Of a stretch of 15,547 nucleotides of DNA, positions 10,267 to 15,547 are shown piece after piece. Made by a program: the position numbers and the translations under genes. The notes beneath the pieces were generated by a model. It was not told the origin of the DNA and searched no databases. It worked only from the letters and a program-made list of their open reading frames with translations. The stretch comes from Methanosarcinales archaeon. Its GTDB lineage: Archaea; Halobacteriota; Methanosarcinia; Methanosarcinales; Methanocomedenaceae. The DNA lies in assembly GCA_030610815.1 (NCBI GenBank), contig JAUWRA010000044.1, positions 1-15,547 on the forward strand, read 5' to 3'. Each line of letters starts with the position of its first letter. Within the stretch, counting starts at the first letter, position 1.

Positions 10267-10415
10267 AGCTATCCCCGTTGAAAGATTGATTGGAATGAAT
10301 TGATTTAAGACTTTTCTATCGGTCATACATGTCATCAATTGTTGTAAGCTTGTAATGATCTGGCATGGAAATGTTTTTTACCAATCCCGTTATCTTAGAC
10401 CCCGGTGTAATTATC

Positions 10416-11162
10416 ATGACGATCAATGAAGGAGATTTTATTAAAATATCATACACAGGTAAATTAGAGGACGGTACTATCTTCGATACTACAAATGAAG
10501 AGGTGGCAAAGGTCCATAATATATATAATTCCAATGGCAGGTACGGTGGCGATGTGATCATTATTGGTGTGAACCAGATGATCGCCGGTCTTGAGGAAGA
10601 TATAAAAGAACATGAAGCAGGCTATGAAGGGACTGTCACAATTCCACCTGAAAAAGCTTTTGGTGACCGTGATCCCAAATTGCTGAGGGATCTTCCCCTC
10701 AGACGTTTAGAACAGAAACCACATGAAGGGATGATGGTTCAATTCGAAGGCAAACAGGCTAAGGTACTCAAGGTCATGGGACGCCATGCCAGATTGGATT
10801 TCAACAGCCCTATGGCAGGCCAGATGATAACATATGATTACAAGATCGAAGCCGTGCTTGAGGAACTGAAGGAAAAAGCAGTTGGTCTTAGTGCACTTTA
10901 TATGGCCAAGGAAATGGACATCGAGATCGATGGTACTGTTGCCAGGGTCAACGTGCCCCTGGAGTTTAATTATTCACAGCATTGGTTGAACACTAAATCA
11001 CAGCTGGCACTGGATATGTTGAAATATACTGAACTGACAGAAGTGTTATATGTTGAAACTTATACAGAAGAACTGGTAAAGCCTGATTCTGAAGAAGAGG
11101 AGCAATTAGAAGCTGAAGAGTCTGATGAATCCGAATCAGATGAACCGGAAGACTCAGAATAA
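10416..11162 (+). CDS. FKBP-type peptidyl-prolyl cis-trans isomerase, archaeal long type with an acidic C-terminal tail
   Basis: The ORF is open from 10365; the likely start is ATG 10416 (MTINEGDFIKISYTGKLEDGTIFDTT). Later motifs are GVNQMIAGLEEDI and PPEKAFGDRDPKL. The C-terminus is Glu/Asp/Ser-rich. Confidence 0.87.
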   Translation: MTINEGDFIKISYTGKLEDGTIFDTTNEEVAKVHNIYNSNGRYGGDVIIIGVNQMIAGLEEDIKEHEAGYEGTVTIPPEKAFGDRDPKLLRDLPLRRLEQKPHEGMMVQFEGKQAKVLKVMGRHARLDFNSPMAGQMITYDYKIEAVLEELKEKAVGLSALYMAKEMDIEIDGTVARVNVPLEFNYSQHWLNTKSQLALDMLKYTELTEVLYVETYTEELVKPDSEEEEQLEAEESDESESDEPEDSE

Positions 11163-11200: not shown

Positions 11201-11208
11201 TTATATTT
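11201..11208 (+). promoter_or_regulatory. TATA-box-like element (ttatattt) about 22-29 nt upstream of the tRNA-Ser 5' end
   Basis: Sequence and spacing are consistent with an archaeal TATA box at about -26 relative to a transcript starting near 11230. Confidence 0.4.
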
Positions 11209-11229
11209 GATCCAACCTGAAACAACCTT

Positions 11230-11314
11230 GCTGAGGTAGCCAAGCGGACCACGGCGCCGGTCTTGAAAACCGGTGGTGCACTGCGCCACGGGAGTTCGAA
11301 TCTCTCCCTCAGCG
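11230..11314 (+). tRNA. tRNA-Ser (anticodon UGA), class II with a long variable arm, no encoded CCA
   Basis: Hand fold: acceptor gctgagg/cctcagc plus discriminator g. D arm gcc...ggc. Anticodon stem ccggt/accgg with loop cttgaaa (anticodon tga). Variable arm tggtgc-act-gcgcca. T arm gggag-ttcgaat-ctctc. Confidence 0.9.
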
Positions 11315-11316
11315 TA

Positions 11317-11327
11317 TTTCTTTTTTT
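11317..11327 (+). terminator. Oligo-T tract (tttcttttttt) immediately after the tRNA-Ser
   Basis: Archaeal RNA polymerase terminates at oligo-T runs, and this one sits 3 nt after the discriminator base. Confidence 0.5.
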
Positions 11328-11428
11328 AAGACTATTGTTCTGGTTATTTGTCTTATTCTTTTATGCTTCAAGGCACGTTTGTCACGAACCCCTAACACCG
11401 CTATTATGGTTTGTGCAAGGACAAAACA

Positions 11429-12715
11429 CTAATCAAGAAGCCACTTACAAAGAGAAACATATCTGATGTTCTTCCCGGAAACAATTTCAACCGCCTCATA
11501 ATCCCATGTAATGATCAGCAGATTATCGCATCGAAGTTCCTCTGAACCTTGCAGGAGAGCTTTTACTTCACGCTCTTTCGTCACAAAATCATCAAGCATG
11601 TAACATACCTGTATAAGTTCAGAGACCTTTTTCCCCTCCTTAATGATAAAATCAATTTCCCTGCCAGATGTGGACTTATAGTAAAACAAATCTCCTTTGC
11701 TTCTTCTTTTCAGTTCAATATAAACAATGTTTTCAATAAGCCTCCCATAGTCCTGTATGCCTTGCAGGGACAGTAGTCCATTATCGACAAGATATATCTT
11801 TGATATACTTGATTCTATATTTTTGTAAGAATAAGAGAACCTCTTGAGTGGAAAAACAATAAATGAATCTTCAAAATAACCGAAATATGTATACAACGTA
11901 TTTTTGCTTATCTTATAGCCTTGCGATTTGAGAAAATTATAAAACTTATGGATTGAAAATTCCTTTGAATTGAATATAGCATTAAGAAAGAGTTTCAGCA
12001 TCTTTATGTTTTTCACATCATACCTTTCCACAATATCCCTGAATATTGTCACATCTACTATCTCACTCAATATCCGGTCCCACTCTTCCCTGTAACGCAC
12101 TGTTTCAGGAAACCCGCCGTATCTGACATAATCTTCCAGTTTTTGGATTATTTCCCCCATCTGCGCTGATGAAAGATATTCTTCATACTCGAGTTTGCCT
12201 GCTTTAAGGACTTCGGCAAAAGAGAAGGGATATACATTGTATGTCAGGCTTCTTCCCCTCATGCTCGTGGCGATCTCTTTACTCATAAGCCTGGATGATG
12301 AACCAGTGACAAACACATTGACATTTTCCATATCAACAAGTGTCCTTACAAATCGTTCCCAATCAGGGATTACCTGTATCTCATCAAGGAATACCCAGGT
12401 TTTTTTATTCCTGTCAGGATAAATCTCAAAAAATACTTCAAGAAGTGTGTTCAGGTCTTGTGACACTGCACCCACCAGTCTTGAATCTTCAAAGTTCACA
12501 TACAATATACTGTTTTTATTTTCTTTACGCGCTAAAAGCTCTTTGATTCCCAGATACATGAGATATGTCTTACCTGACCTTCTGGGACCTGAAAGAACAA
12601 CAGCTCTGTCCAATGGGATGTCAAGAGGATAGTGTATATCCCTCTGTACAATGTCGGGATATCGCCTTTTCTGGAAATCTTTAATTATGTTTCCCCAGAG
12701 TGTCTTTGAGATCAT
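11429..12715 (-). CDS. AAA+ superfamily ATPase of the COG1373 type (AAA_14 N-domain plus DUF4143-like C-domain with a PD-(D/E)xK-like signature)
   Basis: The 428 aa ORF has Walker A GPRRSGKT and Walker B VFLDEIQ. The C-terminal region ENIVYIELKR ... GREIDFIIKEGKKVSELIQV resembles the nuclease-like DUF4143 core. Confidence 0.85.
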   Translation of the reverse strand: MISKTLWGNIIKDFQKRRYPDIVQRDIHYPLDIPLDRAVVLSGPRRSGKTYLMYLGIKELLARKENKNSILYVNFEDSRLVGAVSQDLNTLLEVFFEIYPDRNKKTWVFLDEIQVIPDWERFVRTLVDMENVNVFVTGSSSRLMSKEIATSMRGRSLTYNVYPFSFAEVLKAGKLEYEEYLSSAQMGEIIQKLEDYVRYGGFPETVRYREEWDRILSEIVDVTIFRDIVERYDVKNIKMLKLFLNAIFNSKEFSIHKFYNFLKSQGYKISKNTLYTYFGYFEDSFIVFPLKRFSYSYKNIESSISKIYLVDNGLLSLQGIQDYGRLIENIVYIELKRRSKGDLFYYKSTSGREIDFIIKEGKKVSELIQVCYMLDDFVTKEREVKALLQGSEELRCDNLLIITWDYEAVEIVSGKNIRYVSLCKWLLD

Positions 12716-12766
12716 AGTATTGTATAAGGGGAAATAATTAATAAAAGTTTCCCCTTATAGAATACT
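12716..12766. promoter_or_regulatory. 19-bp imperfect inverted repeat (18/19) with an AT-rich 13-nt loop, directly abutting the ATPase start codon
   Basis: The left arm agtattgtataaggggaaa (12716-12734) pairs with the right arm tttccccttatagaatact (12748-12766). The loop is taattaataaaag. Confidence 0.45.
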
Positions 12767-12788
12767 ATTGTACCTGGCCACCAGCAGA

Positions 12789-13034
12789 TTATATCAATAT
12801 CTGCACTGAACTGCCGCCGCTATCGGCGCAGCCTACTCCCGGCATTGCCGGGATAAGGATTTCTGTAGCTTCAGCCAGCAATTCTTCCCCGTATTCCCTG
12901 TACTGCCATTCCCTTGCCTGTGGTTGTAGCCCCACACCCACCAGCGGCCCATAGACATGGAGTTCCCGCACCAGGGCCTCACCCTCAGGCTCAGGACTGT
13001 GCGGGGCATCGGGATACCTCAACCAGGAACCACG
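12789..13034 (-). pseudogene. 5'-truncated remnant of an Elp3-like (radical SAM/GNAT tRNA modification enzyme) gene, C-terminal GNAT portion only
   Basis: The ORF-track peptide GSWLRYPDAPHSPEPEGEALVRELHVYGPLVGVGLQPQAREWQYREYGEELLAEATEI matches the conserved Elp3 C-terminal block RELHVYG...QHxGxGxxLLxEAExIA. Only about 80 codons are present, so most of the gene, including the radical SAM domain, is missing. This stretch is noticeably more GC-rich than its surroundings. Confidence 0.6.
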
Positions 13035-13170
13035 TTGCTGAGGTGGCCAAGCAGACCACGGCGCCACGAGAGTTCAAATCTCTCCCTCAGCGTCTTTCCT
13101 TTTTACGACTATTGTTCTGGTTATTTGTCTTTTTCTATTATGCTTTGAGGCACGTTTATCACAGACACCG
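13035..13170 (+). repeat. Copy B of the duplicated tRNA-Ser segment (pseudo-tRNA plus about 78 bp of downstream flank)
   Basis: Roughly 85-90% identity by eye to copy A outside the 29-nt deletion. Homology ends at 13170, one base before the stop codon of the first AT-rich cassette gene. Confidence 0.85.
13037..13092 (+). pseudogene. Degenerate tRNA-Ser copy lacking the anticodon arm and variable arm (29-nt internal deletion)
   Basis: The sequence is gctgaggtggccaagcagaccacggcgcc|acgagagttcaaatctctccctcagcg. The acceptor, D and T arms align to 11230-11314 with a few substitutions. The missing 29 nt are bounded in the intact copy by a direct gcgcc repeat. Confidence 0.8.
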
Positions 13171-14202
13171 TTACACTCTGTCATTATCTTTCCCATGTTT
13201 TTTTTGGTGTATGGATAATTTATTATACAATTTAAATGAAAATATCAATGAAAATATCAATGAAAATATCAAAGGTATTAATAGTTCCAATAGTGTTCCA
13301 AACTTCCTGTCTATAACTTCTTCAACTGGATCTATAAATTCGGATGAAATAGTAAATATTACATCAAATATTACAAACAGTGTTAATAATAAAATCCCAG
13401 TTTCTACTTCATGTATTTTAGTAAGAATATCACTTTGAGTTTCAACTGCTTTGATTTGTGCAGATGATAATTTGTTTTGAATTTCGATTAAATCCATATG
13501 TCTATGATCTAAAAGATTATTTATTGCTAACATTTTCATTTTAAATAATCTAGGGAATATTTTCGACGCTGGACAATCAAGTAGATGAAATTTATAACCC
13601 CAGAAGACTTTTATGACATCTTGTTGGTTAATTTGTTTGCTTTCATTTCTCAAGAACTCATGTTCCATTGAGTGGGCTAGTAAAGATAAGGTAAGTAATG
13701 CAATAATATTATCCTTTATTTTTTTAGTTAATTCATCATCATAGGTGATTATTAAATTAAAACATAAATCTTTCACGATATGAAATTCATTTTTTTCATT
13801 AATTTCAGAGTAAAGATAATTAAAGTCATCCAATACTTCATTATTTTCAACAATTCTTAATAAATATTTTTGAGTATCTTTTGAACCAAACACACCACAT
13901 TCATTTTTGTATTTGAAATAAATTTCATTGCTATCGATAAAATCTTTATATATGTATTCTATATCTAAACATTCAAACACAAAAATTGCAGAATTTAATT
14001 TTTGGTGTTTTCGACAAGTAATGAGCCATTTATTTCCATTTAAATTAATTGTTTTACTATATTTATCGTAATGTGTATAAGGATTGGATGGAATCGGACC
14101 TTTTTTTTCTGCAACTTCCCAACCATTTTCCTCTGGATTAATATCAAAATCTTTTTTTTGAGGTAAAAGTGGAATAATATATAAAAATATATTTTTAGTC
14201 AT
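13171..14202 (-). CDS. Unknown protein: soluble N-terminal domain (~265 aa) plus two C-terminal TM helices and a basic tail (CorA-like topology, no GMN motif)
   Basis: 343 aa, very Asn/Lys/Ile-rich. TM1 is GILLLTLFVIFDVIFTISSEF (about 13336-13404), followed by the acidic loop DPVEEVIDRK. TM2 is LLELLIPLIFSLIFSLIFSF (about 13225-13302), with tail HQKKHGKDNDRV. Its ATG overlaps the upstream gene's stop (ATGACTAA, 14195-14202). Confidence 0.75.
   Translation of the reverse strand: MTKNIFLYIIPLLPQKKDFDINPEENGWEVAEKKGPIPSNPYTHYDKYSKTINLNGNKWLITCRKHQKLNSAIFVFECLDIEYIYKDFIDSNEIYFKYKNECGVFGSKDTQKYLLRIVENNEVLDDFNYLYSEINEKNEFHIVKDLCFNLIITYDDELTKKIKDNIIALLTLSLLAHSMEHEFLRNESKQINQQDVIKVFWGYKFHLLDCPASKIFPRLFKMKMLAINNLLDHRHMDLIEIQNKLSSAQIKAVETQSDILTKIHEVETGILLLTLFVIFDVIFTISSEFIDPVEEVIDRKFGTLLELLIPLIFSLIFSLIFSFKLYNKLSIHQKKHGKDNDRV
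13235..13270. repeat. Perfect 12-bp tandem repeat x3 (aatgaaaatatc) inside TM2 of the 343-aa ORF
   Basis: Read directly from the sequence. On the minus strand it encodes the reiterated LIFS units of LIFSLIFSLIFS. Confidence 0.95.
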
Positions 14203-15304
14203 TTGAAAATTCCATTAATTTTATTTCAGGCATTGAACTCGTGAACCAATCGTTTATTGCTGATTTTAAATTTTGATTATTTTTTATTTCAAATGAAATT
14301 GTTTGGCTCTTGACAATATTCAACACTTCCTTAAATAGACTCTTATTGCAATTGAGATGTGAACACGTTAAACAAACATTCATAGTTTTACTGACCCCCA
14401 GAGAACAGATAGGAAGAAACTCAGATAGGTCAAATTCTTCATAACTATTTTCAGATTTTTCAGATTTTAAACATTGTTTTGGTGGATAAAACATATTATT
14501 AGTTGTTATTAATTCAACAAAATTACCATCGTGCATTTTTGTTATTTTGACACAAAAATTACTTGCGCCGTTTACTATTAAATTCTTTTTAATCGGATAG
14601 AATTTTTCCATTTCGTCTTTAAAATGGCCCAGATTGAACAAGTTATCTACTTTAAAAAAAATACTCATTTTATATCCATTAATTTCCTCGCTTTGCACAT
14701 CTAATTCTTTCTTGCTATGAGGTATATGCCAAGGCATAACAAAGACTTTGTAACCCACTGGAAATTCTCTTATTGTTGAAATAGGTAAAAATGAATTATG
14801 GTGTACATATGCAAGCGTTTTGAAGGATTTTACGCAACTACTACTCATTTTCATCAATTCATCCTCAAGAAAATGTACACGTGTTGCACCAGTTAGGTTA
14901 TCATCCATTATTAAAACATTAAGTGGATTATCTCGACTCTCAGATAATTCTTTTAAATCGTTCATTAAAATTTGTCTAATGTCTGTCATTTCATGAAGTG
15001 ATGTTGGATGATCCATTACAAAACAAGGATTGTTTTTTTTACAGGTAAATCCTTTTGGAATTGGACGAACACAAGCTTTATCTATGTTTGAATACTCAAG
15101 GATTGTATCTTTTAACAGACACGCAAATGAATATGCAAGAATTGTACCTCCTCTAGAAAAGCCTAAGATTACATCGTAAGAATCTTTTACCAATTCTTCT
15201 TTATTAGATTCTATATAAGATTCTAGATTTTTTCCAAAATCTATCCACTTTTCATAAAATATATCTCCATCAGTTTTTCGATAGTTACCACTCAAATTAT
15301 TCAA
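14195..15304 (-). CDS. Phosphoribosyltransferase (type I PRTase fold)-like N-domain fused to an unknown ~170-aa Cys-containing C-terminal domain
   Basis: 369 aa with a TTG start. DVILGFSRGGTILAYSFA resembles the PRTase flexible-loop region. NVLIMDDNLTGATR (14879-14920) resembles the PRPP-binding loop VLIVDDxxDTGxT. VFVMPWH resembles the FPWE-type end of COG2236-like PRTases. The C-terminal domain contains C-x10-C-x2-C-x4-C (14348-14407). Confidence 0.7.
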   Translation of the reverse strand: MNNLSGNYRKTDGDIFYEKWIDFGKNLESYIESNKEELVKDSYDVILGFSRGGTILAYSFACLLKDTILEYSNIDKACVRPIPKGFTCKKNNPCFVMDHPTSLHEMTDIRQILMNDLKELSESRDNPLNVLIMDDNLTGATRVHFLEDELMKMSSSCVKSFKTLAYVHHNSFLPISTIREFPVGYKVFVMPWHIPHSKKELDVQSEEINGYKMSIFFKVDNLFNLGHFKDEMEKFYPIKKNLIVNGASNFCVKITKMHDGNFVELITTNNMFYPPKQCLKSEKSENSYEEFDLSEFLPICSLGVSKTMNVCLTCSHLNCNKSLFKEVLNIVKSQTISFEIKNNQNLKSAINDWFTSSMPEIKLMEFSND

Positions 15305-15328
15305 CTCTAGTAATAATTTTATAGCAGA

Positions 15329-15547
15329 TCAAGAAGCTTTCCGAGAGTATTTGGATAGATAAATTGCTCCACCATCTTCTCTATAAATTTTTTCGAAATT
15401 GTTCAAAATTGCATCCCCTGAGTACTCCAATTCGGCTATTATTGACATCATAATATATTCGTCTGAAACGTCAAACTCCTTACACAGTTCATAGATTGTT
15501 TTTCCCTCGGTGGTAAGTCCTTGTTTGACCTGTTCTTTCAAATCCAT
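15329..15547 (-). CDS. Small (72 aa) probable winged-helix DNA-binding protein
   Basis: KTIYELCKEFDVSDEYIMMSIIAELEYSGDAIL has the helix-turn-helix plus wing pattern of small wHTH proteins (FeoC/MarR-like). The ATG is the last codon of the window, so the true N-terminus could lie further upstream. It is co-directional with, and in the same frame as, the PRTase-like ORF. Confidence 0.55.
   Translation of the reverse strand: MDLKEQVKQGLTTEGKTIYELCKEFDVSDEYIMMSIIAELEYSGDAILNNFEKIYREDGGAIYLSKYSRKAS

Follow-up and report, generated by a model that had tools for sequence, protein, structure and literature searches.

Is a tRNA gene that is followed by a damaged copy of itself always the scar of an integrated element? 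The question is raised by a 15,547-nt stretch of DNA (positions 1 to 15,547 of contig JAUWRA010000044.1, assembly GCA_030610815.1; hereafter the window) from a Methanosarcinales archaeon of the family Methanocomedenaceae, in which a tRNA-Ser(UGA) gene, copy A, is followed in direct orientation by a second and degenerate copy, copy B. The original prediction had read this pair as a footprint of integration or recombination at a tRNA hotspot. It is indeed a recombination footprint at a tRNA-linked hotspot, but not a scar of the attachment-site (att) type, since the repeat is the end of a head-to-tail unit. We propose that copy B is probably a dead tRNA gene, a remnant of an old tandem duplication of the DNA between tRNA-Ser and Elp3; in this genus, that DNA now forms a repeat-bounded array with variable cargo and no integrase. 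Such a duplication, inside a hotspot of defence and toxin–antitoxin genes, explains the feature better than an integration scar. The genome of the window is called G000 below; it was compared with genomes of the same genus (G002 to G007) and of other genera (such as G010), all of which are fragmented metagenome-assembled genomes (MAGs).

Two direct copies of the tRNA-Ser locus

The repeat consists of the following parts, all on the plus strand of the window.

11229–11315, plus strand: copy A, intact tRNA-Ser(UGA) (ARAGORN; Rfam RF00005, 55.4 bits)
11259–11287, plus strand: the 29 nt missing from copy B, with GCGCC flanks at 11254–11258 and 11283–11287 of copy A (alignment)
11316–11392, plus strand: T-run and dispersed-repeat fragment, core TTATGCTTCAAGGCACG at 11361–11377 (pattern and nhmmer genome searches)
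13037–13092, plus strand: copy B, a 56-nt pseudo-tRNA-Ser with acceptor, D and T arms only (alignment)
13093–13169, plus strand: copy B of the downstream dispersed-repeat fragment (87% identity to 11323–11392; nhmmer E=2e-17)

ARAGORN and Rfam together called a single tRNA in the window, the tRNA-Ser(UGA) at 11229–11315, confirming that copy A is intact as predicted. By ARAGORN it is also the sole tRNA-Ser(UGA) of the 2.37-Mb, 220-contig genome. Formal alignment (MAFFT), a repeat finder and BLAST agreed that the segment 11213–11392 recurs in direct orientation at 13020–13169 with ∼88% identity, so that the proposed direct duplication of the locus is real. The match falls into three gap-free blocks: 11213–11258 against 13020–13065 (87% identity), 11279–11326 against 13057–13104 (90%) and 11323–11392 against 13100–13169 (87%). 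When the 3′ block was compared with the whole genome by BLAST, the match had E=5e-33, and the 63 nt downstream of the tRNA alone gave E=6e-16. Therefore, the similarity between the copies is significant beyond the tRNA arms, and the possibility that it was confined to them, which would have undone the original prediction, can be set aside.

The homology takes in 16 nt of 5′ flank, the complete tRNA and ∼77 nt beyond its 3′ end (−16 to +77). Its downstream extent had thus been judged correctly, but its start lies 16 nt upstream of the tRNA and not at the tRNA itself. An identical 25-mer is common to both copies, at 11330–11354 and 13107–13131, as had been noticed from the sequence. The remaining differences are scattered along the copies, and the alignment contains no identical core. 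Their divergence of ∼12% lies within the 10–15% estimated earlier and agrees with an old event rather than a fresh att duplication. No third copy was found past position 15547, where one had been thought worth looking for; the contig runs just 327 nt beyond the window.

Copy B had been described as a diverged copy of the same tRNA. It is the same tRNA at ∼88% identity, but a clean 29-nt deletion, corresponding to 11259–11287 of copy A, had gone unmentioned; it took away the anticodon arm together with part of the variable arm. Copy B received no ARAGORN call and no call from the Rfam tRNA model even at E<=1. The anticodon arm was lost in a deletion mediated by the two GCGCC motifs.

The repeat is the end of a head-to-tail unit

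What lies immediately before copy B identifies the kind of event. The relevant features are these.

10365–11162, plus strand: FKBP-type peptidyl-prolyl isomerase gene, the conserved left flank (Pfam FKBP_C, E=1e-11)
11213–11220, plus strand: CAACCTGA, left breakpoint of the duplicated unit and a microhomology with the antisense strand of the real Elp3 gene (three-way comparison, G000 and G005)
12860–13024, minus strand: Elp3 3′-region fragment, ∼codons 445–499, which closes duplicated unit 1 at its distal end (92% identity over 165 bp)
13020–13027, plus strand: duplication junction CAACCAGG, from Elp3-derived sequence to tRNA 5′-flank sequence (three-way comparison)

Over its 165 bp, the Elp3 fragment matches the real Elp3 gene at G000:C160:15488–15652 with 92% identity, and the open reading frame (ORF) that spans it has no Pfam match. 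The copy B homology starts at 13020, no more than 4 nt from the N-terminal-side end of the fragment (13024), so an internal piece of Elp3 is joined in antisense to the 5′ flank of tRNA copy B. The fragment had been listed earlier as mere content between the copies; instead it abuts copy B and belongs to the repeat unit. The duplicated unit begins 16 nt before tRNA-Ser and ends within the convergent Elp3 gene, which makes the Elp3 fragment a part of the repeat and not cargo.

A head-to-tail duplication of the stretch from the tRNA to the 3′ part of Elp3 predicts a junction in which internal Elp3 sequence is followed by the tRNA 5′ flank. This is what is seen: at 13020–13027, the Elp3 antisense strand (to ∼position 1331) is joined to tRNA position −16. 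At the breakpoint, the real Elp3 antisense strand reads ...CTCAACCTGATAAACC..., the flank of copy A reads ...TCCAACCTGAAACAACC... and the junction reads ...CTCAACCAGGAACCAC.... The exchange point lies within an 8-bp identity, CAACCTGA, which in G000 is common to the tRNA 5′ flank and the antisense strand of the real Elp3 gene. In G005 it is intact in the tRNA flank only; the Elp3 strand reads CAACCTTA, a match of 7 of 8. An exchange inside this 8-bp identity points to illegitimate, microhomology-mediated recombination rather than to site-specific recombination.

A second type of junction was found close by, which fuses Elp3, at position 1291, with the final 52 nt of FKBP; the parental sequences have a 3-nt GAA in common. 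This type occurs in G006:C19 (locus L022, 3340–3530) and G002:C213 (L023, 330–660), and the tRNA is precisely deleted from those units. Since this junction type is independent of the first, illegitimate recombination hit the locus repeatedly.

The anatomy of the junction bears directly on classical site-specific integration, whereby one or more elements would have entered tRNA-Ser by means of a tyrosine integrase and copy B would be a displaced or duplicated att site. This explanation has precedent, because archaeal elements usually target tRNA genes and leave a complete tRNA copy together with a partial one (PMC9897764). In addition, foreign AT-rich DNA follows copy B, and two tyrosine recombinase genes are present elsewhere in the genome. 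However, the repeat consists of 5′ flank, full tRNA and 77 nt downstream and is joined, in permuted order, to a fragment of Elp3, its copies have scattered differences without an identical core, the units are only 0.7–2.7 kb long and the junction microhomology lies outside the tRNA. Nor was an integrase found. The earlier statement that the window holds none was upheld by a Pfam scan of its 15 main ORFs, in which 12 were assigned to other families (the ORF spanning the Elp3 fragment and three proteins of the AT-rich cassette had no Pfam match). The same scans found no integrase among the ORFs of the complete array of G005 or in 20 cargo-region ORFs of G002, G003, G004 and G006. On the strength of the Pfam scans and the junction anatomy we rejected the integrase reading, which we regard as very improbable.

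On contig C160, the real Elp3 gene is a 523-codon ORF that is cut off by the end of the contig, 76 nt past the duplicated segment (15652–15728). The repeat probably contributes to the contig break at Elp3, in G000 and in the assemblies of its relatives, and the repeat architecture thus helps to explain why MAG assemblies break in this region.

The undivided site in sister genera and the spread of the junction

The original prediction proposed that synteny at the FKBP–tRNA-Ser locus would define the empty site, and such a site was found in two sister genera. The order FKBP then tRNA-Ser(UGA) is kept throughout the family and the order. In four genomes of two sister genera (G008 and G014; G009 and G012), the site is undivided: RPA on the minus strand, then FKBP and a single tRNA-Ser(UGA) on the plus strand, then Elp3 on the minus strand. 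There, the spacer between the tRNA and the Elp3 stop codon is only a few tens of bp and lacks the downstream repeat. G004, within the genus, has one unit.

The junction recurs in at least four other assemblies of the genus, with as many as three occurrences in succession: in G002:C288, in G005:C66 (at 9087 and 10093), twice in G006:C305, in G006:C246 and in L075, a JGI metagenome contig. Its copies carry lineage-specific substitutions, yet they have a CGG/AGG change in common. The arrangement of ATPase gene and Elp3 fragment seen in the window is also present in G007, G002, G005 and G006 of the genus, at 94–97% identity. A tRNA copy follows the Elp3 fragment in G002 and G006; in G005, the fragment after the ATPase is truncated and no tRNA copy stands behind it. 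The contig of G007, the closest relative, breaks off inside the Elp3 fragment, and from FKBP up to that point it is 95% identical. As these four genomes carry the same arrangement, the event was inherited and did not happen in G000. It had been conceded that the prediction would fail if relatives had both copies and the intervening gene as an ancestral state. Within the genus this is the case; across genera, the arrangement is derived, with the sister genera unduplicated.

In a maximum-likelihood tree of the 165-bp segment, all Elp3 fragments of the genus and its real Elp3 genes formed one clade against the outgroups (support 97/98). Inside that clade the tree was an unresolved star, and the fragments are 87–95% identical to one another. 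Positional orthology was sought through this tree, for which the star was uninformative. These comparisons indicate that the junction arose once, in the lineage of the genus and at about the time of its radiation.

One related contig, L030 (JAIWAT010000062.1), was deposited under an Anaerolineales bacterium MAG; it contains the archaeal FKBP and tRNA-Ser locus described here, at ∼95% identity, and appears to be mis-binned.

The spread of the junction also bears on an assembly artefact, in which copy B and the Elp3 fragment would come from a co-assembled relative and form a strain-variant chimera. Such an origin is conceivable for a MAG of 220 contigs, as the copies are 88–92% identical, in the range of co-occurring species, C160 breaks just past the repeated Elp3 segment and one related contig is mis-binned as Anaerolineales. 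It is contradicted by the junction itself, which occurs with its own substitutions in independently assembled MAGs of different projects and in the JGI contig. Moreover, a chimera would yield neither a 29-nt internal deletion nor a join of Elp3 antisense to tRNA 5′ flank at a microhomology, and the whole array of G005 stands within a 99-kb contig. We consider an artefact extremely unlikely.

Relatives carry arrays with variable cargo

The best-assembled array, G005:C66, lies inside that 99-kb contig and begins with FKBP, tRNA-Ser (55 bits), HicA, an ATPase and a truncated Elp3 fragment. It continues with an ATPase_2/DUF234 protein and an Elp3 fragment joined to a pseudo-tRNA, then with HicA/HicB and an Elp3 fragment joined to a tRNA-Ser (37 bits), and it ends with a Fic protein and the real Elp3 gene. 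The single unit of G004 holds a UDG-like gene, G003 carries a DUF4145 gene, and the units of G006 hold HicA, HicB, ParE and a DUF234-Mrr ATPase. In G002, the unit contains a 129-aa ORF without matches, after which the contig enters a tRNA-Arg/TiaS locus. The JGI contig L075 is chromosomal and ends in a real Elp3 gene, and its cargo is unlike that of the others. The cargo between the same flanks therefore differs among G000, G003, G004, G005, G006 and L075, as is typical of a hotspot. In G000, unit 1 consists of copy A, an ATPase cassette of the PDC-S01 family and the Elp3 fragment; unit 2 consists of copy B and an AT-rich phosphoribosyltransferase (PRTase) cassette, with the real Elp3 gene on contig C160. 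The ATPase unit follows FKBP in G000, G005 and G007; in G006:C246 it stands behind a boundary of Elp3 fragment and tRNA copy (B-type boundary) and not behind FKBP, which means that the order of units is not fixed.

The following course of events would account for these arrays. In the ancestor of the genus, DNA including a copy of the dispersed repeat would have been inserted in the gap between tRNA and Elp3. A head-to-tail duplication would then have copied everything between a point 16 nt upstream of the tRNA and about codon 445 of Elp3, the join being made by illegitimate recombination at the 8-bp CAACCTGA present upstream of the tRNA and in the Elp3 antisense strand. This single event would have created the boundary module, an Elp3 3′ fragment followed by tRNA-Ser and the downstream repeat. 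Later, the array may have grown, shrunk and been rearranged through homologous recombination between modules of ∼400 bp, by enzymes whose involvement we presume. Small, horizontally moving cargo such as toxin–antitoxin pairs and candidate defence genes would have entered the gaps that separate the modules.

The same arrays could have been built from mobile mini-islands, that is, from units that arrived from other lineages as circles of tRNA-Ser, cargo and Elp3 fragment and entered by a single homologous crossover in tRNA or Elp3. The boundary modules of one genome do differ by 8–13%, about as much as those of different species, the order of units varies between genomes (G006:C246 against G000, G005 and G007) and the cargo is mobile, with the ATPase block 94% identical across genera and the PRTase gene in 1 of 20 family genomes. 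However, we found no circular contig or extrachromosomal copy of the module, a search of IMG/VR for the junction gave no match, and the sole match in JGI metagenomes is the chromosomal contig that ends in the real Elp3 gene. The star-like tree is equally compatible with an old burst in situ, and cargo can move on its own, given that G010 has the ATPase block but not the module. We judge the import of whole units to be unlikely.

Several observations weigh against a tandem duplication in place, our preferred explanation. Because the tree is a star and provides no positional orthology, duplication in situ with unequal crossing-over is indistinguishable from units being imported time and again from other lineages. 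In G000, C97 was linked to C160 by inference and not by assembly, and the genomes are fragmented. In G002:C288 (L020, 2500–6000), a B-type tRNA-Ser is followed by tRNA-Arg(GCG), TiaS and DapF, a locus that in G004 and G005 lies on other contigs and lacks the module (L073 and L074); either the chromosome was rearranged through the array or the contig is chimeric. The two tyrosine recombinase genes of the genome (PF00589) lie on C152 and C125 only, from where a recombinase may conceivably have acted in trans. Finally, neither terminal repeats nor target duplications were seen when the boundaries of the ATPase cassette were inspected, by eye only.

Decay of the extra tRNA copies

The tandem duplication also makes sense of the state of the extra tRNA copies, given the position of one further feature.

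11201–11208, plus strand: AT-rich TATA-like box, at about −29 to −22 of copy A and outside the duplicated segment (read from the sequence)

This box is the putative promoter of tRNA-Ser. The duplication starts at 11213 (−16/−17), downstream of the box, and B-type copies therefore lack it; they have GC-rich Elp3 sequence at the corresponding position. The B-type tRNA copies would thus be promoterless and redundant. They have acquired independent lesions: the 29-nt deletion in copy B of G000, a 1-nt T-stem deletion in copy 2 of G005, a destroyed acceptor 3′ strand in copy a of G006 and a 1-nt anticodon-loop deletion in copy b of G006. With the tRNA model, A copies scored 55 bits, the B copy of G002 43 and copy 3 of G005 37, and the other B copies were not called. 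Independent lesions are consistent with copies that are promoterless and redundant.

The sequence downstream of the tRNA is a dispersed repeat

It had been suggested that the 25–80 bp downstream of the tRNA might be a conserved att site or a small RNA. Searches with this sequence pointed to neither a private att site nor a demonstrated small RNA, as it belongs to a dispersed repeat with six copies in G000 (pattern and nhmmer searches), and we rejected both candidates. The copies away from the window are at C7:25967–26096, C20:8589–8724 (minus strand), C34:1294–1426 (minus strand) and C92:31–161. The repeat was also found in 12 of 18 other genomes searched, with 1–15 matches each, and 11 of these 12 belong to the family. 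Rfam has no family for it.

At full length the dispersed repeat has two parts, the core TTATGCTTCAAGGCACG and then GTCAAC-GACCCC ... GCATC-N6-GATGC, the last element being a hairpin. Away from tRNA-Ser, it usually abuts a conserved 150–330-nt block on the opposite strand. The ORFs in this block vary in length among copies, which we read as frame shifts, and hence the block as non-coding. One copy (L039) continues into a sub-threshold match to group II intron domain V/VI (E=1e-3). Among ten sampled genes neighbouring other copies, six were of toxin–antitoxin or restriction type (Fic twice, PIN, ParE, MvaI/BcnI and SprT-like), a count taken without a control set. The dispersed repeat is a candidate mobile non-coding element, intron homing site or promoter. 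It is absent from the short tRNA–Elp3 spacer of the sister genera; we suggest that, in the ancestor of the genus, it entered the spacer before the duplication and was then copied with the unit.

The cargo of the window

Two cassettes fill the compartments of the window.

11427–12860, minus strand: unit 1 cargo, AAA_14/DUF4143 ATPase cassette, consisting of the ORF at 11429–12715 and its upstream region (Pfam AAA_14 9e-39, DUF4143 2e-18)
13171–15547, minus strand: unit 2 cargo, AT-rich three-gene cassette, which extends to ∼15681 on the contig (GC 24–31%)

Between copies A and B lie the AAA_14/DUF4143 ATPase gene (11429–12715, minus strand) and the 165-bp Elp3 fragment. The ATPase matches the PADLOC candidate defence family PDC-S01 (3e-104). 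A block of 1434 bp, comprising the ORF and 144 bp upstream, is 94% identical at G010:C13:6019–7452 (L064), in another genus and an unrelated context. As the FKBP genes of the two genera are only ∼68–70% identical at the DNA level, the block moved horizontally and recently. A 21-bp inverted repeat abuts the ATPase start codon (arms 12714–12734 and 12748–12768, 95% complementary, with a 13-nt AT-rich loop). It is kept with the cassette in G002, G007 and G010 and may be an operator or promoter element.

The AT-rich cassette of unit 2 encodes proteins of 343, 369 and 72 aa, the second of which has a PRTase fold and a Cys cluster; none of them has a match in Pfam, PADLOC or PHROG. Profile searches of PDB sequences with two of the proteins gave no significant match. 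In an AlphaFold2 model (pLDDT 86), the N-terminal part of the 369-aa protein adopts a type I phosphoribosyltransferase fold, for which Foldseek returned archaeal purine PRTases (E=8e-6). Read by eye, the C-terminal hydrophobic stretches of the 343-aa protein may form two membrane helices. At 13229–13272, within the part of the ORF that encodes this hydrophobic region, a 12-nt unit, AATGAAAATATC, is present three times in tandem.

The gene for the 369-aa protein is absent from the 19 other family genomes searched, and so presumably is the cassette. Cassettes with 75–79% DNA identity occur on AT-rich metagenome contigs, two of them adjoining tRNA-Leu, and Methanothrix chromosomes contain diverged homologues of all three genes in the same order (∼46% protein identity for the 369-aa protein). 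As many homologues are on contigs of ∼3 kb, we considered a small circular replicon; this was rejected because terminal overlaps are lacking in the contigs, some of which are chromosomal. The cassette is a candidate for an undescribed conflict system.

Comparison with known systems

The locus cautions that a tRNA with a degenerate copy is not always an integrase scar; the clue here is the fusion of the repeat to a fragment of the opposite flanking gene. For annotation, copy B and the Elp3 piece are pseudogenes, from which no prophage or island boundary should be predicted. The locus is an example, from an uncultured cold-seep genus of Methanosarcinales, of a variable hotspot that is partitioned by copies of its own flanks, with a different toxin–antitoxin or candidate defence gene in each compartment. 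It offers a concrete locus at which to study the turnover of defence genes in archaea without obvious mobile-element machinery.

Archaeal integrase islands in tRNA genes have one full and one partial tRNA copy, repeats of ∼44 bp from the 3′ part and elements of 9–23 kb (PMC9897764). The window resembles att duplications such as that of PYG1 of Pyrococcus yayanosii, with 44-bp repeats (PMC9897764, PMC5126054), in that a complete and a defective tRNA in direct orientation bracket accessory genes, the adjacent DNA is of foreign composition and relatives have an empty site. In contrast to att duplications, the repeat of the window is ∼180 bp long within a module of ∼400 bp, takes in 5′ flank and whole tRNA instead of part of the tRNA and is fused to Elp3, the gene of the opposite flank. 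Its copies are 88% and not near-100% identical and lack a core, there is no integrase, the cargo is 0.7–2.7 kb and the microhomology lies outside the tRNA.

The likeness to integron cassette arrays is one of layout only: small cassettes of single function follow each other in a line with a recurring boundary, and their content varies among strains. Unlike integrons, the array has no IntI and no attC hairpins, its 400-bp boundaries derive from host genes and its cassettes have their own upstream regions. Still, the module of Elp3 fragment and tRNA-Ser might serve as a portable homology cassette: excised circles would have both flanks of the target site and could re-insert by homologous recombination at the tRNA-Ser/Elp3 locus of any relative. 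An integrase-free, integron-like platform of this kind, on which the genus would collect and exchange defence and toxin–antitoxin genes, is a long shot.

In gene content, the array resembles the defence islands and hotspots of E. coli (PMC10121019) and of ANME-1, with hicAB (PMC13385816). As in these, conserved flanks (FKBP/tRNA-Ser and Elp3) enclose variable content, mostly toxin–antitoxin and defence-like genes (HicAB, ParE, Fic, PDC-S01 and DUF234-Mrr). These roles are predicted from family assignment (PADLOC for PDC-S01; Pfam for HicA, HicB, ParE, Fic and Mrr_cat), and the genes are candidates in that sense. Unlike those hotspots, this one is divided internally by recurring copies of the flanks themselves, an architecture of which a shallow literature check found no earlier description.

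With microhomology-mediated tandem segmental duplication, the locus has in common a head-to-tail junction, from the distal end in Elp3 to the start upstream of the tRNA, an 8-bp parental identity, a copy number that varies among relatives and a second, independent junction nearby. All three features that we examined for such a duplication (the junction, the breakpoint identity and unduplicated outgroups) were present. It differs in that each copy of the unit holds different inserted genes, which gives the look of a cassette array rather than of plain amplification. In comparison with these systems, the locus is a hotspot architecture and not a new mechanism.

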